From contig CBDHDD010000002.1 in NCBI GenBank assembly GCA_965261405.1, positions 499,395-563,394 on the forward strand: 64,000 nucleotides of DNA, given 5' to 3'. The notes under the pieces are model-generated. The model saw only the letters and a list, made by a program, of their open reading frames with translations. It was not told the DNA's origin and ran no database searches. This document shows, one piece after another, positions 3,956-61,823 of this stretch. The translations under genes were made by a program, and so were the position numbers. This DNA comes from Dehalococcoidia bacterium (lineage in GTDB: Bacteria > Chloroflexota > Dehalococcoidia > Lucifugimonadales > UBA1127). Position 1 is the first letter of the stretch. Each line of letters starts with the position of its first letter.

Positions 3956-4087
3956 GGTACTTTGCATCTAGCATTCAACGGACGACCCTCTCTGCTCTCA
4001 ACTGGGCGTTTCGCGTTGTATTGCTAGTCGTGGATGGCGACGGTGGGCTACGGGTTGCCCAACTACCCACATTAGGGCGTAGTCCAC

Positions 4088-10139: not shown

Positions 10140-10159
10140 GGAAAAATTATAACAGATTC

Positions 10160-10640
10160 TCAGATGTCCATCATGAGTGAGTAGGCGCGTGTAGCGCCCT
10201 CTACTACAACGAGGCCGGCTAGCCTCACACGAAGCGAAGCCCTGAACCGCGCAGCGGCCCAGGCGGTGGACCGTCGACTCTGAGACGGAGAAGTTCTGTT
10301 TGTCGACAGAACGTAGTCTACTTCCTGGGAGGTCAGCCGGTTCAAAGGGGGCCTGCCGCCTCCTGCAATATTCTCGATCCCATGGATGTCCTGACGTCTG
10401 AGCCACCGGTAGCAGGTGCTCTTGGGAACGTTCAACTCCCTGAGAACCCTACGCTTGGGCAGAGGAGACGAAGCTACCCTGGTCGGCACCTCCGCCTTCC
10501 CTGCACCACTCATCCGCTGTTACTGCCGACGCCCTGGATATCCTGAGGCATTGCAATGGGCGTTTTCTTGAGACGATAGACCTCAAGGGACAGATCGCAG
10601 ACTAGTTGCCTGAGTTCTCCGTTCTCCAGCTTGAATTGAT
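10160..10640 (-). mobile_element. IS debris: an IS3-type OrfA leucine-zipper fragment plus a frameshifted transposase HTH fragment
   Basis: 10514-10640 encodes 'FKLENGELRQLVCDLSLEVYRLKK'. 10160-10513 encodes 'KRRVLRELNVPKSTCYRWLRR...GGGRPPLNRLT'. This continues out of frame as 'SVSESTVHRLGR'. No DDE domain is present. Confidence 0.55.
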
Positions 10641-18608: not shown

Positions 18609-18620
18609 TCTAACCTCCCA

Positions 18621-21665: not shown

Positions 21666-22543
21666 CAGTGGCCACCAATCCAAGTTAGGTGACTTACGGG
21701 CCTTGCCGTTGTACCGTCGTCCAGTTCCATTGATGGCGCATCTGATAGATTCTCTAACCTGAGTTCGCTGGATTGCTCCAACTGCAAGAAAGCAAGGCTC
21801 AATGAACGGGATATCGTCGTTGGCCTTCGAGGATTGGCCAATCGGGCGTCAATTTCAGTGCGTGCTGTGCCCCCATCAATCAAAGGAAGACTCTCCGCCA
21901 GCAGGCGAAGCGTTTCGGCCACCGGGGTTTGCTCCACAAGGCTGGCGACCCTTCCCAAATGGCGTCTCACCGCCTCTGTCGGATCCACCACTACCACCTC
22001 ACGGGAAGAACCCCTAGCAGTCTTCAGCCGCCAAGCGAATCCCAGGTGTCTCGCCCAGTAGATGAACTGTTGACTGCGGGCTTCGTCAGTCAAATCTAGG
22101 GGCGATCCGCAGTCATCCTCCACCTCGCTTCGAAGCCCACCCTGCCAGGGAAGCGGGTCAAGAGGGTCTCGAGTCAGCAACCACGCCAATGCCTTGCACA
22201 CCCTGGCCTGCCGATTCCCATCAGCCAGTTGAGGTTGGACAATCTGGTCCTCAAGAAAGTGGAACTTCTGACTGCTAGTCATTCGCCTGACCTGGTCTGT
22301 CAACATGAAGCGGCCCTCGTCCCCTGACACAACGACATGAAGATTTCTGAGCTCTGAGAGCACCTCCGGCAGAATCGCACCTTGGCGGTCCGGATCGTCG
22401 TCTCTTCGCACTCTGGAAAGGGACGGTGGAGTAACTTGACTTGCGATTTCTGCTTGCGTCATACCTTTCGATGATCCATCAAGGAGTTCCCAAACGGCAT
22501 ACAGCCGATTTGGAGTAGCCGTTACAGATGTAACTACGCTCAT
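21665..22543 (-). CDS. dpdG: ~290-aa protein in the DpdG position
   Basis: No motif recognised. ATGA-type overlaps with both neighbours. Assigned by size and synteny only. Confidence 0.45.
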   Translation of the reverse strand: MSVVTSVTATPNRLYAVWELLDGSSKGMTQAEIASQVTPPSLSRVRRDDDPDRQGAILPEVLSELRNLHVVVSGDEGRFMLTDQVRRMTSSQKFHFLEDQIVQPQLADGNRQARVCKALAWLLTRDPLDPLPWQGGLRSEVEDDCGSPLDLTDEARSQQFIYWARHLGFAWRLKTARGSSREVVVVDPTEAVRRHLGRVASLVEQTPVAETLRLLAESLPLIDGGTARTEIDARLANPRRPTTISRSLSLAFLQLEQSSELRLENLSDAPSMELDDGTTARPVSHLTWIGGH

Positions 22544-25152: not shown

Positions 25153-27269
25153 TCGAAGTCCTCAGATGAATGATCGTCGGTCTCGAGTTCGTACGCATTC
25201 GGTGGTGAGTTCGAGACTACGAACAGACCCATGGCATCAAGTCTTATGGTCGCCTGCCTGATTGCCTCCATCAACAACGCATTCACTTGCAAGTCGACGT
25301 CAATTGAAGAGCCAGCCGCGTCCCCAGTCTTCCTAGTTGCTAGTCGATCGTTGTCTGCAGCCAGAGCGCCCAGGGCATGTGCTACAACTCGATTCTTCCA
25401 AGATTGATGCTCTGTAGAATTCCCCACTAGCACTTGACCTGTTTCACGCGTGCGATAGACTGCCTCTTGGAACGCGCCAGGCTCGATTATTCGAAACAGC
25501 GACTCCCGCCGACTGCCGAGATTATAGTCCCGGCCCGCGTGGCCTCCGACGGTCGAATAACCGCGCTTAAGAATCCTCTGCAAGAGATCGTCGTTGATCG
25601 GCGATCCGTCCAAACCGACGTCAATCAGCATTGTCCAAGGAGGCAGAAGAGCGTCGAGACGACGCTGGATCGCGAATTCATCAATGTTGTCAGGCAGCAT
25701 AGTAGTCTCTCTCTGGATCGTAGACGCTTCGGCCTGAACGACATAGCTCAAACGGAATCCTAGCCAACGGCCCCAGCGTTCAGAATCCCACTCGGGATCC
25801 ACGCGCCAGGTCGCGAACGCGATGCCCCGGTCGTCCCACCGAAGGAATCTCTCCACAGCGTCGACGAGATGCATCCCCGGCCGCACGAGCCGTATCCCTG
25901 GGACAGTTGTTGCAATCGATCGCAGGTAAGTCAGATTGGACCCAAAGATAGAAGGATCGAACAATTCGCTCCAGGGTTCCTTTGGAAGCAGTGTTCGCTC
26001 TGACCACCCGAGACTGAATACTCCACGCCGTGACATCGAGTCGATGGGGCGGAACTTGAGGGTGCCGACCAGGAATCTCTGGAGCGGCTGGAAGCGTCGT
26101 GCCTCGTCGGCCGCGTCTAAGCACTCGAACAGCAGGTTCGCGTCATCGTCGGCCATCGCTCGGGAGTCAAGCGCATATTCCTCATCGAGGCGTTGGCGCT
26201 CACCGGCGATTTGACTACTCAAGGCCTCCATGATCTCGGTCAGCCCCTGTGCACCTCGCCGAAACAGCGCCAATTCAACCTGGCCACGCAAGTCATCAAG
26301 CAAAAACTGTAGTTCTGAAATCGACTCGTCGAACACATGGAACGTATCACGTATCGCCTCGAACCACGCCATCCACGGGTTTGGACCCTGACAATACGGC
26401 ACCACCACCCATTGGGGGATTTTGTCGCCAAACCTATGTCGGCCAAAGCGGTCAACCCTGCCAATGCGCTGCTCGATGCGCGCTGCGTCCACGGGGAGGT
26501 CGGCATGCACGATTGCCGTTGCAAATTGGAGGTTCAGTCCTTCCTCCGCACGTCGATCGCCAACCAGCACGGCATCGCGTGGAGATACACGGAATCCTTC
26601 CACCGCCCGAGCAATTTCGTCCTCAGTCGATTGCTCGGTTACCTTGAACACTGTCTCGTGCCCACACTCTTCCACAGCGTTGCTCAGTGAACTACCGAAC
26701 TGGCTGGATGAGGTCATCGCGACTACCTTTGCTGGCTCTTCGTCAGTACGTGTGCGGAGCGCCGCGCTGTGGACGACAGTGGCAACCAACTGCTCCCGAT
26801 TCCCGGCTGTCTCTTCTCGAAAGGCCTCTAGGGCCAGCCGCAATTCTCTCGATTCTCCCTCGAAGCATTCAGCATTCCTTTGCATTTCACTAAGGAGCCT
26901 CTCGCACTCTTCGGGGCTTTGGCCCAAAGTCTCTAGCATCAAGGCGTGTCTGTGAACAAGTACTCTTTCCAGCGCTTCATCAGGGTTCTCTACTAGGTAT
27001 TCGACTGCGGTCTGTCGCCAAGAATCCAATGCGTCGGCCATAAGAGGACTTCGCTCATCGTCGTCTTCTTCAGGCGTCACGTCACCTCGGCGAGGAACGA
27101 GCACCCATTCTGGCAAGTCGCGTCTCCTGGTTCTGACGAGTCGTTGATGAAGGCGATAAGTATCAGCGATATGGTGCCGTAGTCGAATGATAAGACTTGT
27201 TGCCTCGGGGATGTCCTTTTCAATTGCTTCACTCAAACTTCGCACTTCTTTAATCATCCGGGAATGCAC
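25149..27269 (-). CDS. dpdE: SNF2-family helicase, C-terminal (RecA2) half plus a long C-terminal region (DpdE-like, second polypeptide)
   Basis: 'VLVGDRRAEEGLNLQ' and 'HADLPVDAARIEQRIGRVDRFGR' (SNF2 motifs V/VI). GTG at 27269 or ATG at 27257. It overlaps the upstream ORF's stop. Confidence 0.65.
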   Translation of the reverse strand: MHSRMIKEVRSLSEAIEKDIPEATSLIIRLRHHIADTYRLHQRLVRTRRRDLPEWVLVPRRGDVTPEEDDDERSPLMADALDSWRQTAVEYLVENPDEALERVLVHRHALMLETLGQSPEECERLLSEMQRNAECFEGESRELRLALEAFREETAGNREQLVATVVHSAALRTRTDEEPAKVVAMTSSSQFGSSLSNAVEECGHETVFKVTEQSTEDEIARAVEGFRVSPRDAVLVGDRRAEEGLNLQFATAIVHADLPVDAARIEQRIGRVDRFGRHRFGDKIPQWVVVPYCQGPNPWMAWFEAIRDTFHVFDESISELQFLLDDLRGQVELALFRRGAQGLTEIMEALSSQIAGERQRLDEEYALDSRAMADDDANLLFECLDAADEARRFQPLQRFLVGTLKFRPIDSMSRRGVFSLGWSERTLLPKEPWSELFDPSIFGSNLTYLRSIATTVPGIRLVRPGMHLVDAVERFLRWDDRGIAFATWRVDPEWDSERWGRWLGFRLSYVVQAEASTIQRETTMLPDNIDEFAIQRRLDALLPPWTMLIDVGLDGSPINDDLLQRILKRGYSTVGGHAGRDYNLGSRRESLFRIIEPGAFQEAVYRTRETGQVLVGNSTEHQSWKNRVVAHALGALAADNDRLATRKTGDAAGSSIDVDLQVNALLMEAIRQATIRLDAMGLFVVSNSPPNAYELETDDHSSEDFE

Positions 27270-28353
27270 TTCTGATTTTCGCCAAAGTGTTTAGCAAGAA
27301 TGGTGCCGGTAAGCTGGGACTCAGAGCCAAGAGAAGGCGACCGTATTCTTGCCGCCTGCGAACACGATCAGCGAATTCGTCGCGCGCTTCGAAAGGATAT
27401 CCCGTTGGATCCAACAAGTGTAAGAGTGCCAAAAGAAGGTCTTCGTCGCCAAGCGTTGGAGTAGCTGATATCAGAAGCACTCGTGAGGCCAATCGTGTTA
27501 GTTCTTCAAGATGACGATATTCTTCATTTGCCCAGGCATTCTCAGGGATGAGATGATGAGCTTCATCGATAACCAAAGAGTCGACTTCTCCCGGCACGAG
27601 TTGCTTCAACTCCTCATGGGTCAGAATCGTTACGTTAGAACTCGTGAGAAAGAACCGGTCTCTCAGTTCTCTTACCCACTGCCCAAGGAGGGTGGCCGGA
27701 ACTAGGATTCCGACCCTCTCTGTCGGATTGTCGATGACTGCCTGGCGTACAATCGCACCGGCTTCAATCGTCTTGCCGAGGCCCACCTCGTCCGCTAATA
27801 AATAACGTTGGATAGGATCCTGCAAGATGCGCCGAACTACCTGAATCTGATGGGGGAGTAGTTCAACGGACGCCGACAGGAGTCCGGTCAACCCATGCCC
27901 AGCAGCCCTACTATTGGTGATGCATTCAAGCGCGCCCTGGCGGGCGTCGAAGAAATATTGAGTCTCCATGCCACCGTTAGCGAGAATAGCGGCGGGGTCG
28001 TCAACAGGCAATAGGCAACGCACGTGTAAGTGCCGTTCAGGTATCCTATGACTCAACCGATTTGGGAACTGGATATCATATGCTATCTGCCCCCCACCAT
28101 CGAGAGTCGAACCCACGAAATAATCAACGACACGTCCCACCATCCAGTGCCCCGCACCACTCTCGACATATACCCGAGTCTGCGGACTAAGATATGCTCG
28201 CCTAATCTGCTGTGCCGGGTACACTAGATCGAATGTCCGGGAAGGAGACCTGAAAAACCGGACCGTGGCCTGTTCCTCATCTGAATCTACTAACCGCCCA
28301 ATACCATTCTGATCAAGTGTCCAAACGAACTCACCATTCCTAAGCCGAACCAT
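27250..28353 (-). CDS. dpdE: SNF2-family helicase, N-terminal domain plus RecA1 lobe (DpdE-like, first polypeptide)
   Basis: 'LLPHQIQVV', 'LLADEVGLGKTIEAG', 'LVIDEAHHL', 'LLISATP'. It ends at the TAA at 27250-27252. Confidence 0.65.
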   Translation of the reverse strand: MVRLRNGEFVWTLDQNGIGRLVDSDEEQATVRFFRSPSRTFDLVYPAQQIRRAYLSPQTRVYVESGAGHWMVGRVVDYFVGSTLDGGGQIAYDIQFPNRLSHRIPERHLHVRCLLPVDDPAAILANGGMETQYFFDARQGALECITNSRAAGHGLTGLLSASVELLPHQIQVVRRILQDPIQRYLLADEVGLGKTIEAGAIVRQAVIDNPTERVGILVPATLLGQWVRELRDRFFLTSSNVTILTHEELKQLVPGEVDSLVIDEAHHLIPENAWANEEYRHLEELTRLASRVLLISATPTLGDEDLLLALLHLLDPTGYPFEARDEFADRVRRRQEYGRLLLALSPSLPAPFLLNTLAKIRSAFPDD

Positions 28354-31127: not shown

Positions 31128-31461
31128 TGCATGTACTCCGTTGGATCCATCACCCCAGCTTCCTGAAAGGCCTCCCGGCGCTCGCAGCAGATGCCACATT
31201 CCCCACATTGCGGCTCGAGTCCCTTATAGCAAAACCAAGTTGCAGCCCAGTCTTATACCAACTCTTCGCCGCTTCTGACAATGTCGCTGAAGCCAAGGAG
31301 TGTATAGGTGGAGCATAGCCCTCTGTTGCTATCGATTCCATCGCAGCAAATGACTCGATAGTCGCCGGACGACAATCAGGGTAGATGGGGTGATCACCAA
31401 GGTGCACGCCAGCAGTTACAATAGGCATTCCCGAACCGGGGGGCGTTGAGAATGCTCGCAC
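31124..31461 (-). pseudogene. QueC-like 3' fragment (N-terminal half missing, -1 frameshift near 31229)
   Basis: 'PIVTAGVHLGDHPIYPDCRP...' resembles QueC 'DYSGYPDCRPEF'. After a frame change it reads '[34 protein letters not shown]', which is the QueC Zn/C-terminal motif. No PP-loop region is present. Confidence 0.6.
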
Positions 31462-31816
31462 CCCCGTGTTCCTCGAGAGGCAGGAGATGCCGTCGGTCGT
31501 CGGTCACCAGGAAGTCGGCGGTGGCGGTCGCCACGCACTCCAGGATGCGGTTGTCGGCGTGGCCGCCGTCGATCATCTCCGGAAGCCGCGGGGGCTCGAT
31601 GACGCTGCCGGCATGCCCGATCGCCCAGAGAGCCTGTGACGAGCGTTCGTCGGTCCATCCGAACTTTCGCGCAAGCACCCCGGCAACCTCCTCCAGGATG
31701 AAGGGGGAAAGATACATCTCGAACCGTCCCCTTAGCGCCAAATCGAGAACGCGGCGCTCGTTGCCGTGACGGTTCAGACCGGAGACGATGACGTTGGAAT
31801 CGAGGACAACGCGCAT
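31394..31816 (-). CDS. PIN-domain toxin (VapC-like)
   Basis: 'MRVVLDSNVIVSG...' is the N-terminal acidic PIN motif. 'FLVTDDRRHLL'. About 140 aa. Its 3' end runs into the queC-like fragment. Confidence 0.75.
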   Translation of the reverse strand: MRVVLDSNVIVSGLNRHGNERRVLDLALRGRFEMYLSPFILEEVAGVLARKFGWTDERSSQALWAIGHAGSVIEPPRLPEMIDGGHADNRILECVATATADFLVTDDRRHLLPLEEHGGASILNAPRFGNAYCNCWRAPW

Positions 31817-38330: not shown

Positions 38331-38425
38331 GGAGGGCAGAAAGTTGACCCGGCGATGCGACAAACATCCCGGGCCGTGGCGCCACCCGCGGGTAGCAGGT
38401 GATGCAAAGGCATTGTACCACCCGC

Positions 38426-38458
38426 AGACCCGCTCCCAACAGGAGGCGGGTCTTTTTG
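38426..38458 (+). terminator. Intrinsic-terminator-like hairpin plus T-tract, 28 nt upstream of the recombinase start
   Basis: agacccgc-[tcccaacaggag]-gcgggtct followed by tttttg. Confidence 0.55.
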
Positions 38459-38485
38459 ATTGCAGAGGATGTGAAGGGGGCAGCA

Positions 38486-40084
38486 ATGGCGAGAACCATC
38501 AATAGGAAGACCGAAATGAATCGGGCGGCCATCTACGCCCGCGTCTCGGACAAGAGCCAGGACGGAGAGGACAAGACCTCCCTCTCCGAGCAGACCGCCG
38601 ACATGGAGGCCTACTGCGCCCGCAAGGGCTTGCGCATCGTTGCCCGCTACCAGGAGGTGGGCCGGGGCTGGTCCAAGAAGCGCCCGGAGTTCCAGCGCAT
38701 GCTGGACGAGGCCCGCGAGGGCCGCTTCGACACCGTCGTCTGCTGGAAGTCCGACCGCCTGAGCCGGGGCATGTACCCTGCCGCCGCCCTCATGGAGGTG
38801 GTGGAGGCCTACCAGATCGGCCTGGAGGCGGTCATGGACGCCATCGACATGAAGACCTTCGGCCTCATGGCGGCCATCGGCAAGATCGAGTTGGACAACT
38901 TCCGCGAGCGGGCAACCATGGGCAAACGGGGGACGGCCAAGCAGGGGCGCATACCCTCAGGCGGAGTCCCCTACGGCTACCGCATCGGCGCGGACGGCAA
39001 GCCTGCAGTGGTGGAGGCTGAGGCTGAGATTGTGCAGCGCATCTTCCGCCAGTACGTTCACGAGGGGCTAGGGATACCGACGATTACCCGCCAGATCGAG
39101 GACGAAGGAGTCCCTACGGGAAAGCCAAGCGGCAAGCGTTGGTACGGTTCGCACCTCAATCGCATCCTGAGGAATGAGGCCTACAGGGGCACGTGGACCT
39201 ATGGCCGAAGCAGGCACGTTTCGACTGAGGACGGGAGAGTGACCTACCAGCAGCCAGAGGAGAACTGGATAGAGATACCATTCCCCCCGCTGGTGGACGA
39301 AAGAACCTGGGATATGGCCCAGAAGCTCAGGAAGCAGCGGCTGATCCGGTCCAAGAGGAACACCAAGGTGTTCTATCTGTTGCAGCACCTCGTCAGGTGC
39401 GCGGAGTGCGGGATGCTCTTTGGAGGGCGAGCAACGAATCAGAATACCGTGAGACGCCGCGGTAAGCTCTATCAGTACCACTTTGACACCCCCCGTCGGT
39501 ATTACCAGTGCTACGGGATGCAGAAGCACCAGTCTCGCTGCCGGCAGCATCCGTTCATCCGGGCGGAACGGTTGGAGGACCTGGTCTGGGGCGAGGTCAC
39601 GAGGGTGCTGCAGAATCCCGAGGTCATCGTGACTGGCATCGATGCTCTCAATGTACGGGAAGACCGCGGGGCGGCAGAGGAGCTCGCCAAAGCGGAGCGG
39701 GATCTGCGCGAGGTGCAGATGGAAGAAGAACGGTGCATCAGACTGTATGTGTCGGGGAAGATCACCGAGGACCAGCTCGACCATCAACGTAAGTTCGTTA
39801 CCGAACGCCTGGAGAGTCTCCGAGCAAGGGTGGAAGACTACCGCGCACAAAGAGCTACGGACACCGAGAGACGAGCACTTGCAGGGAGGCTGATCGAGTG
39901 GGCCCGGAAGTTTGGGGAGGGGACAGATGGGTTGAACGCTGAGCAGCGCCGAGAGATTCTGCTGCTTCTCGTTGACAGCGTCGCAATCGACCGTGACGAC
40001 AGCGTCAGCATCTCCCTGGCCATCCCTACTGGGGAGTTTTGTGCAAATGCAACCCCGAATAGTTCATGCTCGTCGGCGCGATGA
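38486..40084 (+). CDS. Large serine recombinase (island integrase)
   Basis: 'AAIYARVSDKSQ' (catalytic Ser region) and 'WKSDRLSRG'. Recombinase domain 'PYGYR...'. Zn-ribbon 'CAECG...YYQCYG...C'. C-terminal coiled coil. The ATG at 38486 follows gaaggggg. Confidence 0.9.
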   Translation: MARTINRKTEMNRAAIYARVSDKSQDGEDKTSLSEQTADMEAYCARKGLRIVARYQEVGRGWSKKRPEFQRMLDEAREGRFDTVVCWKSDRLSRGMYPAAALMEVVEAYQIGLEAVMDAIDMKTFGLMAAIGKIELDNFRERATMGKRGTAKQGRIPSGGVPYGYRIGADGKPAVVEAEAEIVQRIFRQYVHEGLGIPTITRQIEDEGVPTGKPSGKRWYGSHLNRILRNEAYRGTWTYGRSRHVSTEDGRVTYQQPEENWIEIPFPPLVDERTWDMAQKLRKQRLIRSKRNTKVFYLLQHLVRCAECGMLFGGRATNQNTVRRRGKLYQYHFDTPRRYYQCYGMQKHQSRCRQHPFIRAERLEDLVWGEVTRVLQNPEVIVTGIDALNVREDRGAAEELAKAERDLREVQMEEERCIRLYVSGKITEDQLDHQRKFVTERLESLRARVEDYRAQRATDTERRALAGRLIEWARKFGEGTDGLNAEQRREILLLLVDSVAIDRDDSVSISLAIPTGEFCANATPNSSCSSAR

Positions 40085-40560
40085 ACCCGTGCCCCTGCGG
40101 CTATTTCGGCGATCCGTTCCGGGCGTGTACCTGCGCTCGCAGCGCTGTTGTACGGTATCGAAACCGCATCTCCGGGCCGCTCCTCGACCGCATCGACATC
40201 ATCTTGCCCGTGCCCAGGGTGGACTATGACAAGTTGACGACGGACAGCGTCTCCGAGGCCTCAACGCAGGTGCGCCGCCGCGTCGAGACTGCCCGCGATC
40301 TCCAGCGCCGCCGCTTCGGCGAGTCCGCCATCCAATGCAACGCCGACATGGGTCCCTCTGAAGTGTGGACCCACTGCCAACTTGACGACGCCACGCAGGC
40401 GATGGCCAAGGCGGCCATGGACACGTTGCACCTCTCCGCGAGGGCCTACCACCGCACCCTCAAGCTCGCTCGCACCATCGCCGACCTGAGCGGCGCCGAG
40501 GCCGTTGGCGGCGACCATTTCCTGCAGGCCATGAACTACCGCCAGCGCGCCGAAGAGTAG
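40063..40560 (+). pseudogene. comM: 3' remnant of comM/yifB (Mg-chelatase-like ATPase) truncated by the island insertion
   Basis: 'FMLVGAMNPCPCGYFGD...CTC', 'ISGPLLDRIDI', 'LSARAYHRTLKLARTIADL'. A stop codon lies immediately upstream (40060-40062). No N-terminal ATPase part is in the window. Confidence 0.85.
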
Positions 40561-42220: not shown

Positions 42221-43057
42221 ATGCGTATGAAGGACCTCGAGATCCATCTCCTCACCGATGGCGCCGTGAAGGTTGACGGCGGGACCATGTTTGGACAAGT
42301 GCCCAGGGAATCCTGGGAGACCATGGTAAAGCCGGACCGGCGGCATCGTGTGCGGTGGGGGATCAACGCGCTCCTCATCCAATCCAAGGGCGTCAACATC
42401 CTCGTGGATGACGGCGCCGGCGCCAAGCTTGACGAGGAGGAGCGGGAGGACAAGGGCCTGAACTGCAACCGCCTCAAGAAGGAACTGCGCGAACTGGACC
42501 TGACACCCAGGGACATCCACTACGTCGTCCTCACCCACCTGCACTACCTGCACGCCGGTGGGAGCACCCGCCGCACCCGCAACGGCGATGTCGTCGCGGC
42601 GTTCCCACAGGCGCGGTACCTCGTGCAGCGGCACGCTTGGGAAGATGCCCTTTCCCCCACCGAGCTTGGTCGGCATTCCTTCAACACGGAGGACTTCCTG
42701 CCCCTGGAGAAATCTGGCCACCTGGAGTTGATCGACGGCGACTACGAGATCCTGCCCGGCGTCAACGTCCGCGTCACCGACGGTCATTGCCGCGGCCACC
42801 AGGTTGTGGTGGCGGAGCATCTGGGCAACCGCTTCGCCTACCTGGGTGACCTGGTGCCCAGCGCCTTTCACCTTGGCCTGCCGACCATCTCCTCCCAGGA
42901 CCAGTTCCCGGAGGACACGCTGACGCAGAAGCGCAAGCTCCTGGCCGCTGCGGAGCGCGACGGCTCGCTGCTGCTCTTCTCGCACGGTATGGATACCCGG
43001 GGCGGCTACTTGGAGCGCCGCAACGGCAAGCTGGCCCTGACGCCGGTGGCCGTCTAG
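42221..43057 (+). CDS. MBL-fold metallo-hydrolase
   Basis: 'VVLTHLHYLHAGG' is an HxHxDH-like motif. 'DGHCRGH'. 'LLLFSHG'. Confidence 0.8.
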   Translation: MRMKDLEIHLLTDGAVKVDGGTMFGQVPRESWETMVKPDRRHRVRWGINALLIQSKGVNILVDDGAGAKLDEEEREDKGLNCNRLKKELRELDLTPRDIHYVVLTHLHYLHAGGSTRRTRNGDVVAAFPQARYLVQRHAWEDALSPTELGRHSFNTEDFLPLEKSGHLELIDGDYEILPGVNVRVTDGHCRGHQVVVAEHLGNRFAYLGDLVPSAFHLGLPTISSQDQFPEDTLTQKRKLLAAAERDGSLLLFSHGMDTRGGYLERRNGKLALTPVAV

Positions 43058-43124
43058 CCCCAATCTCTCGGCAAACGAAAGGACCGGCGCCTCGCATACG
43101 GGACGCCGGTCCTTTCGCTTCGCT

Positions 43125-43159
43125 GCCCGTGCCCGTGCCGGTGCCGGTGCCGGTGCCCT
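43125..43159. repeat. Hexanucleotide microsatellite (GCCSGT) with about 6 units
   Basis: gcccgt gcccgt gccggt gccggt gccggt gccct. It lies just after a 13-bp-stem hairpin at 43077-43116. Confidence 0.8.
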
Positions 43160-43256
43160 GATGTTGTCCGTCTACTCCGGCAAAGTCGTATACTGGACAC
43201 GCGCTGACGGTTTGACTCGACCGCACGAACGCGCAAAACCCAGATAAGGACCTGCA

Positions 43257-44270
43257 ATGCAATACAGGCAGCTTGGCAAGACCAACTTGACCGTGTCCGA
43301 GGTGGGCTTCGGCGTCTGGACCGTCGCAACCAACTGGTGGGGGAAGATTGAGCCCGCTGACGGCGTCAAGCTCCTCCAGGAGGCCGTGGGCCTCGGCGTC
43401 ACCCTCTTCGACACCGCGGACACCTACAGCGAGGGCTTCGGTGAGGAGATTCTCGCCAAGGCCATCGGCTCCAACCGGCACGACGTGGTCTATGCGACCA
43501 AGTTCGGCTACGACATCTACAACGCCGTCCCACGAGAGGGCCACCGCGAGCGCCCCCAGGACTTCTCGCCGGACTTCATCCGCTTCGCCTGCGAGCAAAG
43601 CCTCCGCCGCCTCAACACGGACTACATCGACCTCTACCAGATGCACAACCCCCGCATCACCGCCATCGAACGCGACGAGGTCTTCAACACGCTGGAGGAA
43701 CTGGTGAGTGAGGGTAAGCTGCGCTACTACGGCGCCGCCCTTGGTCCAGACATCGGCTGGTTCGAAGAGGGCGACGCCTTCATGCGTGAGCGCGACGGTG
43801 CCTCGATGCAGATCATCTACAGCATCATCGAGCAGCAGCCTGCCCGAGACTTCTTCCCCATCGCGAAGGAGCACGAGATTGGTCTCCTCTCCCGAGTCCC
43901 CCATGCCTCCGAGATCCTGACGGAGAAGTTCCGTCACACGCCGCCGGTCTTCGACGCCGGCGACCACCGCGCGCACCGCAACCAGGCGTGGCTGGACGAG
44001 GCCGTCCGTAAGTTGGAGGAGTTGCGCTTCCTGCAGGAACACCACACCTTGGCAATGGACCAGCTGGCCATCACCTTCGCGTTGGCGGAGCCCGCAATCT
44101 GCGCCGTGCTGCCCAACATCACCAGCCGCGAGACGCTGCAGACATACGTCGCGGCGTCGGAGGCGGAGCGCCCCTGCGAGGACTGCCTGAAGCAGTTGCG
44201 TGAGGTCTTTGACGAGGTCTTCACCAAGGAGTTGGCCCCGCTGGACAAGGCGGGCAAGACCCGTCCGTAA
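43257..44270 (+). CDS. Aldo/keto reductase
   Basis: 'MQYRQLGKTNLTVSEVGFGVW', 'FDTADTYSEG', 'YIDLYQMHNP'. Confidence 0.9.
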   Translation: MQYRQLGKTNLTVSEVGFGVWTVATNWWGKIEPADGVKLLQEAVGLGVTLFDTADTYSEGFGEEILAKAIGSNRHDVVYATKFGYDIYNAVPREGHRERPQDFSPDFIRFACEQSLRRLNTDYIDLYQMHNPRITAIERDEVFNTLEELVSEGKLRYYGAALGPDIGWFEEGDAFMRERDGASMQIIYSIIEQQPARDFFPIAKEHEIGLLSRVPHASEILTEKFRHTPPVFDAGDHRAHRNQAWLDEAVRKLEELRFLQEHHTLAMDQLAITFALAEPAICAVLPNITSRETLQTYVAASEAERPCEDCLKQLREVFDEVFTKELAPLDKAGKTRP

Positions 44271-44284
44271 GGCGCTTCTCGGTC

Positions 44285-44340
44285 ATTCCGGCGCAGACCG
44301 GAATCCAGGGGAGGCGTAGGGGCAACCCTCGTGGTTGCCC
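44285..44340. repeat. Composite intergenic repeat: attccgg-N6-ccggaat hairpin plus REP-like copy 2
   Basis: attccggcgcagaccggaat (44285-44304) and gtaggggcaaccctcgtggttgccc (44316-44340). Confidence 0.8.
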
Positions 44341-44394
44341 GCCCCGTTCGTCCTGAGGCTCTCGAAGGAGGCGAACAGGATGGCGAGCGCTTGG

Positions 44395-44976
44395 CTACGT
44401 GCCGGGCGCGGGCGCGACCGGCGCGCCTTGGTCGGGCGCGTTTCGCCCATTGCGCGGACCTCGAGAGAAGTTCCCGCGACGGTTGTTGCCCCCGCGCTGC
44501 TGGCGGTTCTCGAGGGGCTGGGGCGGCGCCGGCGGCCGTCCAAGGATCTTGCGCATCTCTTCCTCGATGAACTCGTAGTCCTTGCGCGGCAGCAGGTGCA
44601 GTTCGTCCATGAGGGCATAGTGCCACATCTCCGGTGGCCACCGGCGCACGTACTCCATGCGCGGCCCAATCTGGTTGACCAGCAGGTACTTCTCCGACGG
44701 CAGCACGAAGTCCTGTGAAATCCGTACGCGGTACTTGAAGGACTCGCTGGCCTGATGGGCCGTCCACAGCGGGCTGTCGTCCTCGAACACCGGGGAGGAG
44801 ATGGTGGCCGTTGCGGGAAAGACACGCGAGCCTTTGACGTAGAACAGCAGGCGGTCGCCCTTGACCATTCGGTCGGTCTTGCGGCGCTGTCGAGTCCCAA
44901 ACCCCTGCACGCTGAACCCCTGGGCGCGCGTTACTTCAAAGTTCTCTTCTGAGATGCTGAGCATCCAATAGTTCAC
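44395..44976 (-). CDS. EVE (PUA-like) domain protein with a disordered RGG-rich tail
   Basis: 'MNYWMLSISEENFE...GDRLLFYVKG...' fits the EVE pattern. The C-terminus is 'RQQRGGNNRRGNFSRGPRNGR'. Confidence 0.65.
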   Translation of the reverse strand: MNYWMLSISEENFEVTRAQGFSVQGFGTRQRRKTDRMVKGDRLLFYVKGSRVFPATATISSPVFEDDSPLWTAHQASESFKYRVRISQDFVLPSEKYLLVNQIGPRMEYVRRWPPEMWHYALMDELHLLPRKDYEFIEEEMRKILGRPPAPPQPLENRQQRGGNNRRGNFSRGPRNGRNAPDQGAPVAPAPGT

Positions 44977-49518: not shown

Positions 49519-49938
49519 ATGAAGAAGAAGATGAAGAAGTACACTCAACAGGAATGGGCCGACATGGCAGCAGATCTTGCGAGCTCCATGGGCTTTGGGG
49601 ACTTGGTGGAACACGACGATTTTCTGACCGATCCCGAAGAGGACGCACGCAAGCCCCCCATTACCGTGAAGAAGCCGGGCGCCCCCAAAGGCAACCAGAA
49701 CGCCCGCAAGCACGGCCTCTACTCAAAGATTGCTCCGGCACGGCGGCGCGGCGACATGGATAAGGCCTTGGATATGGAATCCCTCACCCAGGAGGCCGCC
49801 ATGTTGCGTCTCCTGTTGGCCAAACTCATGGAAAACCCCGACGAGAACCTCAAGGAAATATTGCAGATCCTCAGGGTCCTCACCCCCATCGTCAAGCTCA
49901 ACCTAATGGTCGAGGATGATGACGATAGCCGGTGGTAG
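49519..49938 (+). CDS. Hypothetical protein (139 aa)
   Basis: 'GAPKGNQNARKHGLYS' is a motif I have seen in small uncharacterised or phage-associated proteins. No firm family. Confidence 0.45.
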   Translation: MKKKMKKYTQQEWADMAADLASSMGFGDLVEHDDFLTDPEEDARKPPITVKKPGAPKGNQNARKHGLYSKIAPARRRGDMDKALDMESLTQEAAMLRLLLAKLMENPDENLKEILQILRVLTPIVKLNLMVEDDDDSRW

Positions 49939-49992
49939 GCGAGGTGGGCCAAACGTGGAACAATTCAATGCGTATCTGGGCCTGCTCCCCAC

Positions 49993-50086
49993 AGCTACGC
50001 ATTGTTTCCGAAACAATCGCCCGCCAGCTACGGATTGTTTCACAAACAATTCCTATCTGCTGGCTACGGATTGTTTCGCAAACAAT
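49993..50086. repeat. Three tandem ~25-bp units, each containing ATTGTTT-N3-AAACAAT
   Basis: agctacgcATTGTTTccgAAACAAT (49993-50017), agctacggATTGTTTcacAAACAAT (50026-50050), gctacggATTGTTTcgcAAACAAT (50063-50086). Confidence 0.85.
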
Positions 50087-50239
50087 CTTCAAGCCTTAAG
50101 TACAAGGATGGAATTGTCTCCGAATCAATCCTTGCCCGTCTGTGGAGGGCTCGAAGGGCAGGGCGAAATGGAACGCGCCCCAACCCGTTCGCCCGAAGTG
50201 AGCGAGTGGGTTGGGGCGCGTGTTCTCCCTAAGTTCCCG

Positions 50240-51211
50240 CTACGACCAGTAGGCGAAGGCCATGGCGCAGCCCGTGCCCGCCGGCGACCGGTAGCACGGC
50301 GCGTAGTCGATCAGGTGGAAGTCCATGTGCTCCGTCGCCCCCGACGTCGTGATCCAGTTCCGTATCTCCGACGACCCCGAGTTGAGGTGCTCGCGCGGCA
50401 GCCCGAACAGCCCCTCGGTGTCCCGGGTCTCCAGGCCCTTGATGACGCTCTGGTCCAACTCCTCGTTGATGACGAAGTGGCTCAGCCCGCCGGACGCGAT
50501 GACCGCCACCCGGGCGTCCGAGTCCCAGTCCTCAACCGCGTTGCGGATAGCCTGCCCCAGGTTGTAGGAGCGCTTGGGCGTCGGCTGGTTCGGCGGGAAG
50601 TAGGTGTTCAGCATCACCGGCACCATGGGGATCAGCTTGTCCTGCATGATGCGCGTGTAGACGAAGCTGAAGGCGTGCCCCATGCCCTGTCCCTTGCGGA
50701 AGTACCGCGAGCGCGCCACGTCAAACTCCTGCTCGATCAGCGAGCCCAGCATGTGGCTGGCCAGGTCCTTCGCGATGGGGTACTCCTTCTCCTCCAACCC
50801 GTAGGCCCACGCGGCGCGGCGAAGGGGCGCTTGCAAGCTGTCCGGGATGTTCGAGATGGTGTCGCCCCAGTAGACGGCCATGGCCGGGAAGTTGTCTTCC
50901 TGGAAGACCTCCTCCTGGTCGTCGCCAACGACGATGACCGCGTCGACGTTGGCCTCCGCCAGCTTGCGGCTCACCGTCGCGAGCCCGTTCTGGCAGATGT
51001 CATACCGCTTCTGCCACAGCTCCGGGTCGAGCTGCTTCTCGATGGACGCGTCCGCCATGTCGAGAACTTCCTCGTACGTGTGATGGATGCCGTCCAGGCC
51101 GTAGAGGTGTGGGTTGCGCTTGTCGTTCTCGGCGTGGAGCGACCAGGTCTCCGGCGTAAGGCTCAACTGTGGGCTGTGGGACGTCCCAAGCCCGAGGACA
51201 ATCTCTGCCAT
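50240..51211 (-). CDS. Class III (LigB-type) extradiol ring-cleavage dioxygenase
   Basis: 'MAEIVLGLGTSHSPQL', 'VVGDDQEE', 'SGGLSHF'. Confidence 0.75.
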   Translation of the reverse strand: MAEIVLGLGTSHSPQLSLTPETWSLHAENDKRNPHLYGLDGIHHTYEEVLDMADASIEKQLDPELWQKRYDICQNGLATVSRKLAEANVDAVIVVGDDQEEVFQEDNFPAMAVYWGDTISNIPDSLQAPLRRAAWAYGLEEKEYPIAKDLASHMLGSLIEQEFDVARSRYFRKGQGMGHAFSFVYTRIMQDKLIPMVPVMLNTYFPPNQPTPKRSYNLGQAIRNAVEDWDSDARVAVIASGGLSHFVINEELDQSVIKGLETRDTEGLFGLPREHLNSGSSEIRNWITTSGATEHMDFHLIDYAPCYRSPAGTGCAMAFAYWS

Positions 51212-51356
51212 AACGTGTCTCCTTTGTGCGATATACCCGGCCGCAGCAATGCCAGGGCCACAGGGCGTTCCGTGCCCCGATTATACACGAATGGTCTCTC
51301 GACAGGCCTGCGCCAATACGCCATCCGCTCGCCTCGCTCCGAGCCTGTCGAAACAC

Positions 51357-51381
51357 GTAGGGGCAACCCTCGTGGTTGCCC
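51357..51381. repeat. GC-rich hairpin repeat (REP-like), copy 3
   Basis: gtaggggcaaccctcgtggttgccc, identical to copies 1 and 2. Confidence 0.85.
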
Positions 51382-51394
51382 ACCCCCGCTCCCC

Positions 51395-52642
51395 CTACTC
51401 GTGCCGCAGCGCCTCGATGGGGTGCAGCCGCGCCGCCTGCATCGCCGGGTAGATGCCGAAGAAGAGGCCGATGCCGCCCGAGACCGCCGTCGCGATGATG
51501 GCGATGTCGCTGCTGAAGACCATATTGAGCGCCGTCCCGCCCAGCTCCACGTCGTCGAAGTAGTAGGTGAAGCCGTAACCCAGCGCCACGCCGATGATGC
51601 CGCCCGTCAGGCTCAGCAGGATGGCCTCGACAAGGAACTGCGAGAGGATGTCGCGGCGCTTCGCCCCCATCGCCTTCCGTATGCCGATCTCCCGCGTTCG
51701 CTCCGTCACGGACACCAGCATGATGTTCATGATGCCGATGCCGCCCACCAGCAACGCGATGCTGGCAATCGCCCCAAGGAAGATGACAAAGGTCTGCGTG
51801 GTCTCCTCCAGCGTCTCGATCGTATCCACCAGGCTGGTTACCGAGAAGTCGTCCTCGTCGGTGATGCGGTGGCGCAGGCGCAGGATGTTGCTGATCTGCT
51901 CCGTCGCCGCGTCGTTGACTTCCTCGTTCGCAATCTGCACGTTGATGCGCTGAACAGTGATCTCTCCGCCCGCGGTGCGTTGCGCCCCCAGGCGGTAGTA
52001 CGCCGTGGTGATGGGCACGAAGACCCGGTCGTCCAGCGAGCCGATGCTGGTGCCGCCTTTGCTCTTCAGCACTCCGACAACCTCGAACGGCCGGCCGTCG
52101 ATCCGGATGGTGTGCCCAACTGGGTTCCGAAGTCCAAAGAGCTCCTCCGCCGTTTCCGAGGCCAGCAGCGCCACCTGCGCGCGTCGGCCAAGGTCCGCCT
52201 CATCGATGGCTCTCCCGTCCTCCAGCTCGTAGACGCGCACGTCCAGGTAGGAGGGAGTAACGCCCACCACCTGCGTGTTCGTGTTCTCCCGCTCGAACAC
52301 TACCTGCGTCCGGGTGGTGATCTCCGGCGCCACGTCCACCACGTGGGACGCGAGCACCGGGTCCATCAGCGCCTCCGAGTCCTCCAGCGTCAGGCTCGCC
52401 GCGCTACCAAGCGCCCCCGCAAACCCGAATTGGCTGAACGAGGCCCCCGGCTGCACGAAGAGGAGGTTTGTGCCGAGCGACTGGATCCGCGTCGTGATCG
52501 ATTCCTGCGCGCCGTTCCCGATCGCCGTCAACGAAATGACCGCCGTCACGCCGATGATGATGCCGAGCAGCGTCAGCCCTGATCGCAGCTTGTTGGAGTT
52601 CAGCGCGTCCAGCGCCGTCAGAAATGTCGTTAGTGGTGTCAT
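51395..52642 (-). CDS. ABC transporter permease (MacB/FtsX family)
   Basis: An N-terminal TM helix, a large periplasmic domain, and a C-terminal FtsX-like 'ERTREIGIRKAMGA'. Confidence 0.85.
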   Translation of the reverse strand: MTPLTTFLTALDALNSNKLRSGLTLLGIIIGVTAVISLTAIGNGAQESITTRIQSLGTNLLFVQPGASFSQFGFAGALGSAASLTLEDSEALMDPVLASHVVDVAPEITTRTQVVFERENTNTQVVGVTPSYLDVRVYELEDGRAIDEADLGRRAQVALLASETAEELFGLRNPVGHTIRIDGRPFEVVGVLKSKGGTSIGSLDDRVFVPITTAYYRLGAQRTAGGEITVQRINVQIANEEVNDAATEQISNILRLRHRITDEDDFSVTSLVDTIETLEETTQTFVIFLGAIASIALLVGGIGIMNIMLVSVTERTREIGIRKAMGAKRRDILSQFLVEAILLSLTGGIIGVALGYGFTYYFDDVELGGTALNMVFSSDIAIIATAVSGGIGLFFGIYPAMQAARLHPIEALRHE

Positions 52643-55557: not shown

Positions 55558-56187
55558 CTAGCCTGCGCCAACGCCCTCGCTCAGCACGCGCTCTACAACC
55601 TGCTTGAAGAAGTCATACGGGTGCGCCCCGGTGAAGAGGTACCGCCCGATGGTGAATGCGGGAATACCGTTGATGCCGTAGCTGATTGCCTGCTGGTAGC
55701 TTTCCTGCACGGCCTCCGAGTAGGTGTGATTGTGCAGCGCCTCTTCCAGCTTGCGGGGGTACAGCCCAACTTCCTCGGCAACGGCGGCAAGCACTTCCGT
55801 CTTCTCGATGTCCTCGCCGCGCTCCCAATAGGCACGGAAGACCGCGTGGTGGAAGGGCATCTCCAGCCCCATCGCCTTCGCGAATTCCGTGGCTTCCAGC
55901 GCGGGGCCGGTGTACGGAGTGTGTGGGCTGCGGCGCATGACAAACCCGGCCTCTTCGGCATAGGTGCGCAGCGGTTCGTTCAGTTCTCCCCCGGGGCCCT
56001 CACCGGGTCGGGGCTGTCGGTCCCTGCCGCCCGGCTGCATGTCCGGACGCAGGAAGAAGGCGCGCGTCTCAATGGTGACGGGGTACTCCTCCTGGAGCTT
56101 GTTCAGCCTGTCCAGGCCGATGTAGCACCAGGGTCAGATGTAGTCGGTCCACACGGTAATCGGAATTGTCTGCGCTTCGGTAGACAT
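55558..56187 (-). CDS. DsbA/FrnE-like thiol oxidoreductase with an in-frame TGA at the first CxxC position (candidate selenoprotein, otherwise a pseudogene)
   Basis: One frame reads 'MSTEAQTIPITVWTDYI[TGA]PWCYIGLDRLNKL...GINGIPAFTIG...'. The TGA is at 56134-56136. The family normally has D..CPWCY.G here. Confidence 0.7.
56091..56116 (-). promoter_or_regulatory. SECIS-like hairpin 17 nt downstream of the in-frame TGA
   Basis: CCUGGA-cag-GCU-[GAACA]-AGC-UCCAGG. This gives 9 bp with a 3-nt bulge. The apical loop contains a G. Confidence 0.45.
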
Positions 56188-56321
56188 GGCTGCCCCCTCA
56201 CACTTTCGCGCGAGTATACCACGCGGACCCCGCGAGACCCTAAAAATTCTTGACACCTTCCAGCCTCAGTTGGTACGCTTGTGAAGCTTTTATACCCATC
56301 GATCACTAGTTGAGGTTTGCT

Positions 56322-56669
56322 TTGCCTACGTACGACTACCAGTGCAGCAGCTGCAATCACCGTTTTGAGCTCCGGCAGGGATTTGACTCAGACAGGATGA
56401 CGGACTGCCCAAATTGCGGGCAGTTGGCCGAGCGGCAAATCAGCTTGGTGCCTGTTATTTTCAAGGGCAGCGGCTGGTACGTGAACGACTACGGCAAGAA
56501 GAAGAGCACGCTGGGCAACGGCGACGCGCCTTCGTCCCCATCGTCTGACGACGGCCACGGCCATAGTCACGACGACCATTCCCACAGCCACGGCGATCAC
56601 AGCCACTCCCACGACCACGGCGCCGCCCCTGCAGTCGCCCCCTCTGAGTCCTCCGGCTCGGACAGCTAG
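56322..56669 (+). CDS. FmdB-family zinc-ribbon protein with a His-rich tail
   Basis: 'PTYDYQCSSCNHRFE...CPNCG', then 'HGHSHDDHSHSHGDHSHSHDHG'. A TTG start at 56322 is preferred. Confidence 0.75.
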   Translation: MPTYDYQCSSCNHRFELRQGFDSDRMTDCPNCGQLAERQISLVPVIFKGSGWYVNDYGKKKSTLGNGDAPSSPSSDDGHGHSHDDHSHSHGDHSHSHDHGAAPAVAPSESSGSDS

Positions 56670-60633: not shown

Positions 60634-61188
60634 TCATGGCAAGCCGTTCGCCCTCTTCCACTCCTCATAGCATGTGAGACATAGCGGCAAGTCTTGAACG
60701 GCGCTATGGTTTCGCAACCTGTTGGACTTACCACAGCGAGCACAGAACGTTGTGGCAGACGAGCTATCGGTGATGAGATTCTCAACTCGTTGCCTAATCC
60801 GATTCTGGCTAAATGCATCAGTTACTCTGTACGCCACTTCGCAGTTGCCAATCGAGTAGTCCGTCAGGTTCATCGAACTCAACAGAATTGTATCTTCATT
60901 GATGTACATCTTTGCGTGCAGATTGGGCACCGTGACACAATCTACCTTGTTGCTTCTTAGCCAGTTCACGTCAGGATGTCCCGAAAGCTTGTCCGCTTCA
61001 TCCTCACGCAGGATGAATTTGACGTCTACCCTTCTTTTCCTAGCTGCACGGATCGCCTTCTTTGCTTCATCCCACAGCCTCAGGTAAGGACTTACAACGA
61101 TGACCGACTCTTTCGCTTCGTGAATGATCTGGAGAATCCCCGGAGCAACTTGGGCATCCAAGTAGACTTCTCCGCCCTCATCAACCAA
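60634..61188 (-). CDS. Single-HKD PLD-family (Nuc-like) nuclease with a C-terminal Cys4 zinc ribbon
   Basis: 'NLHAKMYINED' plus 'LLSSMNLT' (HKD/GSxN-like). 'FCARCG...CLTCY'. Visibly AT-richer than the flanks. Confidence 0.65.
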   Translation of the reverse strand: MVDEGGEVYLDAQVAPGILQIIHEAKESVIVVSPYLRLWDEAKKAIRAARKRRVDVKFILREDEADKLSGHPDVNWLRSNKVDCVTVPNLHAKMYINEDTILLSSMNLTDYSIGNCEVAYRVTDAFSQNRIRQRVENLITDSSSATTFCARCGKSNRLRNHSAVQDLPLCLTCYEEWKRANGLP

Positions 61189-61207
61189 TTCCGCCTCCTC
61201 GTCACCC

Positions 61208-61672
61208 TCAGTCCAACTCCACCGAAAACGGCACCCGTCCCCGCAGCTGCGGCTTGCCGTCCGGCCACTCGTCCTTGGGCAGCTCGTAGACGACCTCGAT
61301 CTCGTTGCCGTCCGGGTCCATGAAGTAGATGCCGAAGCCGAGGCCGTGCTCGCCGTAGCCGACGATGGGCACCTCGTGCTCCTTCAGTCGACGGTGGAAG
61401 TCCCGCAGGTCCTCCAGCGTCTCCACCTGCCACGCCATGTGGTACAGCCCGACACGGTTCTGCTGCGGGCCCGGCGCGTCCATCCCGATTTCCTGCGTTG
61501 CGAGGTCGTGCGTGGTTGGCTCGTCGTCCGTAGCGTAGAACACCATGCCGGGGTATTTGGCCGTGATGTGGAAGCCCATGACCTCCGTGTAGAAACGCTC
61601 CGAGCGCTCTACGTCTCGAACGCGGATCACCAAGTGGGTCAGGCGCTTGATCCGTGCTTTGGTGGTTGTCAC
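61208..61672 (-). CDS. VOC-family (glyoxalase/extradiol dioxygenase-fold) protein
   Basis: 'LTHLVIRVRDVERSERFYTEVMGF', 'LYHMAW', 'YFMDPDGNEIEV'. Confidence 0.8.
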   Translation of the reverse strand: MTTTKARIKRLTHLVIRVRDVERSERFYTEVMGFHITAKYPGMVFYATDDEPTTHDLATQEIGMDAPGPQQNRVGLYHMAWQVETLEDLRDFHRRLKEHEVPIVGYGEHGLGFGIYFMDPDGNEIEVVYELPKDEWPDGKPQLRGRVPFSVELD

Positions 61673-61823
61673 CGGTGTCCCTCCTTGGCTTGTCCGACAT
61701 CCGTTCGCCCTGAGCTTGTCGAAGGGTGCCTAGGCTCTCTGGCGGCTTCCATCGCACCTATGGAGCGGGGGCGTCCATCGCGCCCCCTTACTCAAATCCC
61801 TCTGCATTCCCGCCTCCGCCGGC

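Follow-up and report, generated by a model that had tools for sequence, protein, structure and literature searches.

An in-frame UGA codon at the active site of a FrnE-type DsbA-family gene of a Dehalococcoidia bacterium: a probable selenoprotein with a downstream SECIS-like hairpin

The stretch analyzed here (64,000 nucleotides of contig CBDHDD010000002.1, assembly GCA_965261405.1, of a Dehalococcoidia bacterium; hereafter the window) harbors on its minus strand a gene for a thiol-disulfide oxidoreductase of the DsbA family, whose reading frame is interrupted by a single TGA precisely at the first position of the CxxC active site. The question raised by this locus is whether the gene has been inactivated by a nonsense codon or whether UGA is read as selenocysteine (Sec, U). 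We conclude that the gene very probably encodes a Sec-containing protein, because every related Dehalococcoidia/Chloroflexota locus retrieved has the TGA in the first position of CxxC, together with a conserved flanking peptide, start and length of the open reading frame (ORF), because homologs with cysteine carry TGC or TGT at this codon, because a hairpin compliant with the rules for a bacterial selenocysteine insertion sequence (bSECIS) co-occurs with the TGA and is largely absent from the Cys forms, and because TGA is an ordinary stop codon elsewhere in the window. The kind of selenoprotein is not new. As a first-pass annotation of the sequence had stated, DsbA-like selenoproteins have been reported before: the family (COG2761, UxxC) was first described in 2005 from the Sargasso Sea metagenome on the basis of nine sequences with predicted SECIS elements (PMC1088965) and reappeared in later surveys (PMC1794560, PMC5029168, PMC13188914). 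A survey of 2016 counted it in 41 organisms and a review of 2026 lists it as 'DsbA-like protein form 1, PF01323, UxxC'. The window gene adds one case to a kind known since 2005.

The frame extends from the ATG at 56187-56185 to the TAG at 55560-55558 and comprises 209 sense codons and one internal stop. With U written as C, the translation matched the Pfam family DSBA (PF01323) with an E-value of 1.4e-33 over residues 10-197 of 209, which correspond to profile positions 2-189 of 191. Thus, the DSBA domain spans the TGA, and the complete frame of about 209 amino acids proposed by the first-pass annotation was confirmed. The TGA (56136-56134) is codon 18 and its residue is labelled Sec17 in the following; it resides in the context TDYI-[TGA]-PWC-YIG. 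The peptide encoded upstream of it is MSTEAQTIPITVWTDYI, the downstream part begins with PWCYIGLDRL, and Cys20 is the sole cysteine of the protein besides Sec17. Of 40 other ORFs of the window, 17 are terminated by TGA, 16 by TAG and seven by TAA. Since TGA ends 17 of them, the genetic code is evidently standard.

Database entries do not reveal the complete gene. The closest public protein, P0001, has 160 amino acids and is 99% identical to the window protein. In a search of 5.8 billion proteins, the 36 closest clusters (48-99% identity) all lacked the N-terminus and measured 126-184 amino acids. The expectation that automatic callers truncate the gene to 55558-56040 was therefore corroborated by the program-made ORF list, by P0001 and by 35 further truncated clusters. 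Full-length homologs of approximately 240 amino acids were only found at 44% identity or less, and these carry the sequence DYICPWCYIGL.

We also determined how the TGA is distributed among related genes. One genome per GTDB species was scanned using the seed motif [PYK]A[LH]EATE[YFH]A, which is distant from the active site. The scan gave 80 loci, all of them from metagenome-assembled genomes of Dehalococcoidia, Chloroflexota or SAR202 bacteria, with OZ244559.1 as the best match (94% identity). Together with two syntenic contig loci they make up a set of 82 loci, whose products are 46-94% identical to the window protein. Each of the 82 possesses a TGA at the first CxxC position, and 44 further metagenome loci contain it at the same codon. 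The beta-strand peptide V.VW[YT]DY[IV], which precedes the TGA, is conserved throughout the 82 loci. Nearly all orthologs have an in-frame ATG 17-24 codons 5′ of the TGA, which is followed by 186-196 codons. An alignment of Cys- and Sec-containing homologs, recommended as a check by the first-pass annotation, placed C-P-W-C of the Cys homologs P0037, P0038, P0044, P0052, P0064 and P0076 and of Deinococcus radiodurans FrnE (drFrnE) opposite U-P-W-C. The UGA thus lies opposite the catalytic cysteine, the first of CPWC, as that annotation had read the motif, and it is invariant across a large clade. In two loci, L030 (3049-3051) and L036 (3046-3048), U-A-W-C replaces U-P-W-C, so that the near-invariant proline is changed.

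Cys forms for comparison were obtained by a metagenome scan seeded with Cys-form homologs. It disclosed a sister subfamily (L083-L162) from soil and groundwater metagenomes, which has a conserved N-terminal extension of about 40 residues (MESWVVGY.GD.DVERHAG...) and is a mixture of 44 TGA forms and 35 forms with TGC or TGT at the equivalent codon. The nearest DNA neighbor of four Cys forms (L104, L110, L139, L144) is a TGA form with 80-89% nucleotide identity, indicating that Sec-to-Cys switches occurred repeatedly. One of them, L104, retains the Sec-type stem described below, which is consistent with a recent Sec-to-Cys switch. No Cys form was detected among the 82 loci, and a Sec form that has become fixed in all species-level genomes obtained from the Dehalococcoidia/SAR202 clade is more likely than a non-Sec or a conditional reading of the codon.

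Downstream of the UGA the mRNA can form an extended hairpin spanning positions +5 to +46 (here and below, the U of UGA is the reference point). Its base is an outer stem of 5 bp (CCUGG/CCAGG); above a U/U mismatch follow a helix of 3 bp (GCU/AGC) and, separated from it by a symmetric internal loop (ACA/ACA), the 7-bp upper stem, which is capped by the apical loop GGAC. Published criteria for bSECIS elements call for a loop size of 3-9 nt on a stem measuring 4-16 bp, a distance of 16-37 nt between UGA and loop, a G in at least one of the two leading loop positions (often with a G or U after it) and a minimum free energy (MFE) of -7.5 kcal/mol or lower (PMC13188914). In the window hairpin the loop is GGAC, the stem has 7 bp, the distance amounts to 20 nt and the upper stem by itself reaches -8.9 kcal/mol, in agreement with all four published criteria. 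It resembles the bSECIS consensus and the element of Escherichia coli fdhF in being a stem-loop within the coding sequence after the UGA, with a small loop starting with GG, a spacing of 20 nt and a stem of 7 bp. The loop of the fdhF element is GGUC and lies at a nearly identical distance from the UGA; the bulged U of fdhF, however, was not seen in the window hairpin, which also lacks sequence similarity to the Rfam SECIS models.

A different hairpin had been suggested by the first-pass annotation, namely CCUGGA..GCU-GAACA-AGC-UCCAGG at +21 to +46, which begins 17 nt 3′ of the TGA and exposes the loop GAACA at +33 to +37. This structure can indeed form, but it competes with the extended hairpin for the same 3′ arm, and the MFE fold is the extended hairpin. 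Nor is it conserved: on 89 distinct TGA homologs, 52.6% of the cells were paired compared to 52.8% in a control slid by +1. The favored and conserved element is the overlapping GGAC stem-loop. The outer 5-bp stem was likewise rejected as a family-wide element, as its individual pairs occur in only 18-56 of the 89 sequences; it is clade-specific. The three pairs of the middle helix are formed in 88, 69 and 89 of the 89 sequences.

An upper stem equivalent to that of the window exists in nearly all TGA forms. The apical loops of the family are GAG, CGUGC and GGAC, the majority being GAG or CGUGC in a register shifted by 1 nt from that of the window. Of 102 scored TGA sequences, 93 have a distance of 20 or 21 nt between UGA and loop. 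In the clade of the window, four substitutions converted CGG GUC GA to AGG CUG AA and moved the register by 1 nt, while 7 bp were kept.

To compare TGA and Cys forms, the region +12 to +42 was folded. At similar GC content, the mean free energy was -10.5 kcal/mol for the TGA forms and -5.6 kcal/mol for the Cys forms. A strict bSECIS test requiring a contiguous stem was passed by 91 of 113 TGA sequences, but by only two of 31 Cys sequences. Each sequence was also set against synonymous recodings of its own peptide. The TGA forms had a mean of -12.2 kcal/mol versus -7.9 for the null (mean z of -1.8; 54 of 108 sequences individually at or below the 5% level), whereas the Cys forms (-8.5 versus -8.6; z of 0.0) did not differ from it. 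For the extended hairpin of the window, the MFE of -23.9 kcal/mol compares to a synonymous null of -11.3 ± 3.6 (z=-3.5), and none of 500 recodings was as stable. Furthermore, third codon positions within the 5′ arm show a conservation of 90% or more, those just upstream being variable, and over the near-identical peptide CPWCYIGL[TA]R[VL]E the TGA forms use CUG and CGG or AGG where the Cys homologs use CUC and CGC. The data show that a SECIS-compliant hairpin tracks the TGA and is maintained at synonymous sites.

Several results weigh against reading the UGA as Sec or against the hairpin as its signal. Of the 113 TGA sequences, 22 failed the strict contiguous-stem test, their stems being bulged or mismatched in the MFE folds. 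Covariation, which was counted on four candidate structures, is weak: in the majority register 78% of the cells pair, but the stem is mostly invariant, only three of nine pairs exhibit any double change and compensatory changes are few. The covariation score exceeded that of shuffled data only marginally (14/500 and 21/500) and did not surpass every slid control. The stem sits in conserved codons (I/V-G-L-x-R-L/V) and the sequences are phylogenetically related. Because the stem is part of a conserved coding sequence, the structural support is provided by the contrast between TGA and Cys forms and by the synonymous-site tests. A search of 56040-56200 with Rfam at E≤10 gave chance matches only and no SECIS model, and the whole window at the gathering threshold no SECIS or tRNA-Sec family. 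Finally, selA, selB, selD and a gene for tRNA-Sec were not found in the 64-kb window by Pfam analysis of about 47 ORFs, by ARAGORN or by Rfam. As the search covered the window and the sel genes are absent from it, Sec competence of this organism has to be judged from its relatives.

The window represents about 2% of a genome of approximately 2.9 Mb, and by chance alone four small loci would be expected to lie outside it. ARAGORN detected no tRNA gene of any type in the window, and no tRNA-Sec beside 60 related loci. The relatives give support for Sec use at the level of the lineage. BSepDB, which counts a species as a Sec user only if it possesses at least two of SelA, SelB and SelD, assigns 46 selenoprotein genes to 'Dehalococcoidia bacterium 10f4566d-ab44-49ae-b774-fc9f760c6436', placing it in the bacterial top ten. 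The same isolate is the source of locus L073, one of the TGA orthologs. That Sec users exist among the Chloroflexi had been known before (PMC1794560). Another related locus, L033, contains two tandem DUF3179 genes (3754-4851 and 4869-6023) directly 3′ of its DsbA-like gene. Both have an in-frame TGA in VLVSW-U-PIC-(F/Y) with a hairpin 3′ of it, and the Pfam DUF3179 match (E=1.5e-65) spans the TGA; DUF3179 with UxxC/T figures among the listed selenoprotein families. When the window was screened for further selenoprotein genes by in-frame TGA, redox motif, bSECIS and high GC content at third codon positions (GC3), only the DsbA-like gene was recovered.

How do other explanations of the TGA compare with these data? 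A single in-frame stop formally resembles a young pseudogene or a base-call error without a full-length protein, and it fits this idea that the databases hold only truncated calls. It is hardly conceivable, however, that the same TGA would then recur in all 82 loci from independent assemblies at 46-94% protein identity, and the conservation of frame, start and the V.VW[YT]DY[IV] peptide 5′ of it contradicts neutral evolution. The accompanying hairpin, which is kept at synonymous sites, is a further argument against this idea. The earlier preference for a Sec oxidoreductase over a random nonsense pseudogene was thus well founded. A relic gene deserves a little more attention. If the Sec machinery had been lost, the UGA would terminate translation and give a 17-residue peptide and/or the 160-residue fragment starting at ATG 56040. 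Bacteria have commonly lost the Sec trait in the course of evolution (PMC1794560), and neither sel genes nor tRNA-Sec occur in the window. Yet, the SECIS of the window is intact and unusually stable compared with its synonymous recodings, the protein shares 94% identity with orthologs from complete chromosomes and bears no sign of degradation, and the small share of the genome covered makes the missing sel loci unsurprising. Moreover, the fragment would be devoid of the active site and of the first beta-strand of the thioredoxin fold. We consider this scenario very improbable.

Slightly less probable still is that UGA is recoded to another residue, for instance to Cys by a SECIS/SelB-dependent tRNA-Sec-like tRNA, or that it has been reassigned genome-wide. 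Recoding from Sec to Cys is known from some bacteria, and the sel machinery was not seen in the window. On the other hand, a genome-wide reassignment is excluded by the 17 ORFs of the window ending with TGA, the UGA stands where a redox motif of an established selenoprotein family has its catalytic Cys, and relatives are on record as using Sec in dozens of selenoproteins. In addition, the switches between TGA and TGC/TGT within the sister subfamily tend to lose the hairpin, which would make little sense if UGA meant Cys. Taken together with the possibility that Sec is delivered only conditionally, as a selenium-responsive switch between full-length product and termination, recoding to a non-Sec residue through SECIS and SelB is likewise given a very low probability. 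The hairpin itself might be a mere by-product of the conserved peptide I/V-G-L-x-R-L/V without any function as RNA, read-through being caused by another signal. The stem indeed lies entirely within codons of conserved residues of the alpha-1 helix, and compensatory covariation is weak. But Cys homologs with a near-identical peptide do not form the stem, they equal the synonymous null from which the TGA forms deviate, and the clade of the window changed four nucleotides and still kept its 7-bp stem in the shifted register. The chance that this explanation applies is very slight, and only the pseudogene is less credible.

Starting from a Sec codon, the following course of events is suggested. 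The UGA at 56136-56134 would be read through and not used as a stop. The mRNA 3′ of it would fold into a SECIS comprising the 7-bp stem with its GGAC loop, the 3-bp helix and the clade-specific 5-bp outer stem. The GGAC stem-loop is predicted to bind the SelB.GTP.Sec-tRNA(Sec) complex, thereby bringing selenocysteine to the A site. The product would be a cytoplasmic FrnE-type enzyme with the active site Sec17-Pro-Trp-Cys20, probably a thiol/selenol-disulfide oxidoreductase acting as reductase or isomerase. In such an enzyme the selenolate of Sec17 would attack substrate disulfides, and Cys20 would resolve the selenenylsulfide intermediate. SelB binding, Sec insertion and the cytoplasmic location are inferences, and the presumed enzymatic role follows from the homology to D. 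radiodurans FrnE.

This protein is the best relative with a solved structure (5CNW/5CP1; E=2.6e-15, residues 5-192). Weaker PDB matches were obtained with SCO1869 (9.5e-9), HCCA isomerase (about 2e-5) and DsbA (about 3e-5). CP(W/F)C is the active-site motif of the FrnE subfamily (COG2761, cd03024; PMC8945050), which U-P-W-C of the window protein fits with Sec in place of the first Cys. drFrnE (DR_0659) is a cytoplasmic disulfide reductase/isomerase of the DsbA family, whose C-terminal CxxxxC motif was proposed to regenerate the active site (PMC8945050). Its CPWCYIG aligns with UPWCYIG, and the two proteins share the cis-Pro loop (G-I/V-P). The N-terminus of the window protein, MSTEAQTIPITVW, leads straight into beta-1, and by eye no hydrophobic leader is visible. 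The two proteins differ in that drFrnE has Cys instead of Sec, a CxxxxC tail and 260 residues (crystallised chains) compared to 209; overall similarity is low. The window protein ends with ...ERVLSEGVGAG and contains no CxxxxC regeneration motif. Many members of the subfamily carry this motif, though not every one: the FrnE proteins of S. roseofulvus and D. maricopensis do not possess it either (PMC8945050), and CxxxxC therefore does not define the subfamily. As the window protein has neither another Cys nor the CxxxxC tail, its recycling must differ from that of drFrnE.

The known DsbA-like selenoprotein form 1 shares with the window protein PF01323, UxxC with Sec for the first Cys, and a SECIS directly 3′ with a G in a small apical loop. 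Published genome examples come from Deltaproteobacteria and Firmicutes (Anaeromyxobacter, Desulfovibrio, Desulfotomaculum; PMC1794560) besides anonymous marine reads, whereas here a Sec form appears to be fixed across a Dehalococcoidia/SAR202 clade. The periplasmic DsbA of the E. coli type is a relative at the superfamily level only. It has in common the thioredoxin fold with helical insertion, a CxxC-type site and the cis-Pro loop, but the window protein contains UPWC instead of CPHC, has no visible signal peptide and no DsbB partner nearby, and the PDB matches to DsbA (E about 1e-5) are confined to the C-terminal part. The Rcas_1661 selenolipoprotein family (NF041057) was rejected, since it scored 41.8 bits against a cutoff of 190 bits and matched the C-terminal 90 residues only. 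NCBIfam contained no specific model for the window protein.

In practice, the finding serves above all to correct the systematic truncation of this gene in public annotations. Across the abundant uncultured Dehalococcoidia/SAR202 bacteria, this DsbA-like enzyme is mis-annotated as a 'DsbA family protein, partial' of 126-184 amino acids. Correct gene models matter for estimates of selenium demand and for the redox biochemistry of these bacteria; BSepDB ranks Dehalococcoidia among the most selenoprotein-rich bacteria. A FrnE protein with Sec for Cys and without a CxxxxC tail hints at a different recycling chemistry, and the paired Sec and Cys forms are material for asking why Sec is retained. 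If the fixed Sec clade, the flipping sister subfamily and 'fossil' SECIS elements as in L104 hold true, they would provide a natural series for the birth, register shift and decay of a SECIS within a coding helix. Nothing here overturns current understanding. The coordinates of the gene and its elements, and of the genes of an island discussed below, are compiled in Table 1.

Table 1. Features of the selenoprotein candidate locus and of the lower-GC3 island (window positions).
Feature	Position	Strand	Evidence or remark
Selenoprotein gene (candidate), FrnE-type DsbA-family thiol-disulfide oxidoreductase	55558..56187	minus	translation, Pfam, 82 orthologous loci
Shine-Dalgarno-like GAGGGGG, 5 nt 5′ of ATG	56193..56199	minus	sequence; putative function
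ATG start, 17 codons 5′ of TGA	56185..56187	minus	sequence; start kept in nearly all orthologs
In-frame UGA, predicted Sec codon at N-terminal (nucleophilic) Cys of CPWC	56134..56136	minus	alignment
TGC codon, Cys20, resolving Cys of U-P-W-C	56125..56127	minus	invariant in both protein alignments
Extended SECIS hairpin, +5..+46	56091..56132	minus	MFE -23.9 to -24.7 kcal/mol
Middle 3-bp helix GCU/AGC	56126-56124 with 56099-56097	minus	pairing conserved
SECIS upper stem-loop, 7-bp UCGGCCU/AGGCUGA (+17..+23 with +28..+34)	56103..56120	minus	folding, bSECIS test
Apical loop GGAC, +24..+27, 20 nt 3′ of UGA	56113-56110	minus	folding
Hairpin of the first-pass annotation, alternative weaker fold	56091..56116	minus	-10.8 kcal/mol alone
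Truncated 160-aa ORF without active site	55558..56040	minus	program-made ORF list
Island: Vut_1 transporter	3257-3955		
Island: TGT-like/DUF6884 protein	4088-5806		
Island: UvrD helicase	5803-8154		
Island: PD-(D/E)XK nuclease	8157-9338		
Island: QueC	9396-10406	minus	
Island: seven large genes, DEAD/Helicase_C/SNF2/AAA_16 domains	13378-28353	minus	

The DsbA-like gene looks monocistronic; a consensus scan of its surroundings for a sigma-70 promoter and an intrinsic terminator gave neither. No gene neighbor is conserved family-wide. A divergent pair of genes for an FmdB zinc-ribbon protein and dtd is present in 17 loci, and downstream HlyD/ABC efflux genes recur in the 13 closest loci. In the window, the gene of the FmdB-family zinc-ribbon protein (TIGR02605) lies at 56310-56669 on the plus strand, points away from the selenoprotein gene and precedes dtd; its product has the His-rich tail HGHSHDDHSHSHGDHSHSHDH. 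FmdB is itself a listed selenoprotein family (UxxU); the window copy has Cys.

The TGA at 61384-61386 of the window was rejected as a Sec codon: the stretch 5′ of it is read out of frame, and a PLD-like gene follows 3′. The overlying ORF 61092-61757 (minus strand) is probably spurious, being in the wrong frame with a GC3 of 0.47; the real gene is the PLD-like one at about 60637-61300 (minus strand). The ORFs 44283-44900 and 42774-44045 on the minus strand share one frame and are split by the TGA at 44283-44285 into 215 and 502 open codons. They gave no Pfam match, the context SAPE-TGA-PRSA is not redox-like, and they are probably two adjacent genes. An ORF of 888 amino acids on the plus strand (49916-52582) is probably spurious, too, as it runs antisense to MacB/FtsX and LigB genes according to synteny and reversed tblastn matches to L001.

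Apart from the selenoprotein locus, the window includes a lower-GC3 island (3257-28353), which resembles a Dpd-type 7-deazaguanine DNA-modification or defence island. At its edge, a PIN-domain protein (PIN_3) is encoded at 31394-31816 on the minus strand, possibly the toxin of a toxin-antitoxin pair. Finally, the region 38399-40084 encodes a large serine recombinase with the domains Resolvase, Recombinase and Zn_ribbon_recom, and directly adjoining it is the C-terminal fragment of a Mg-chelatase/ComM-like gene (40066-40560), which suggests that a mobile element integrated into comM at 38399-40560.

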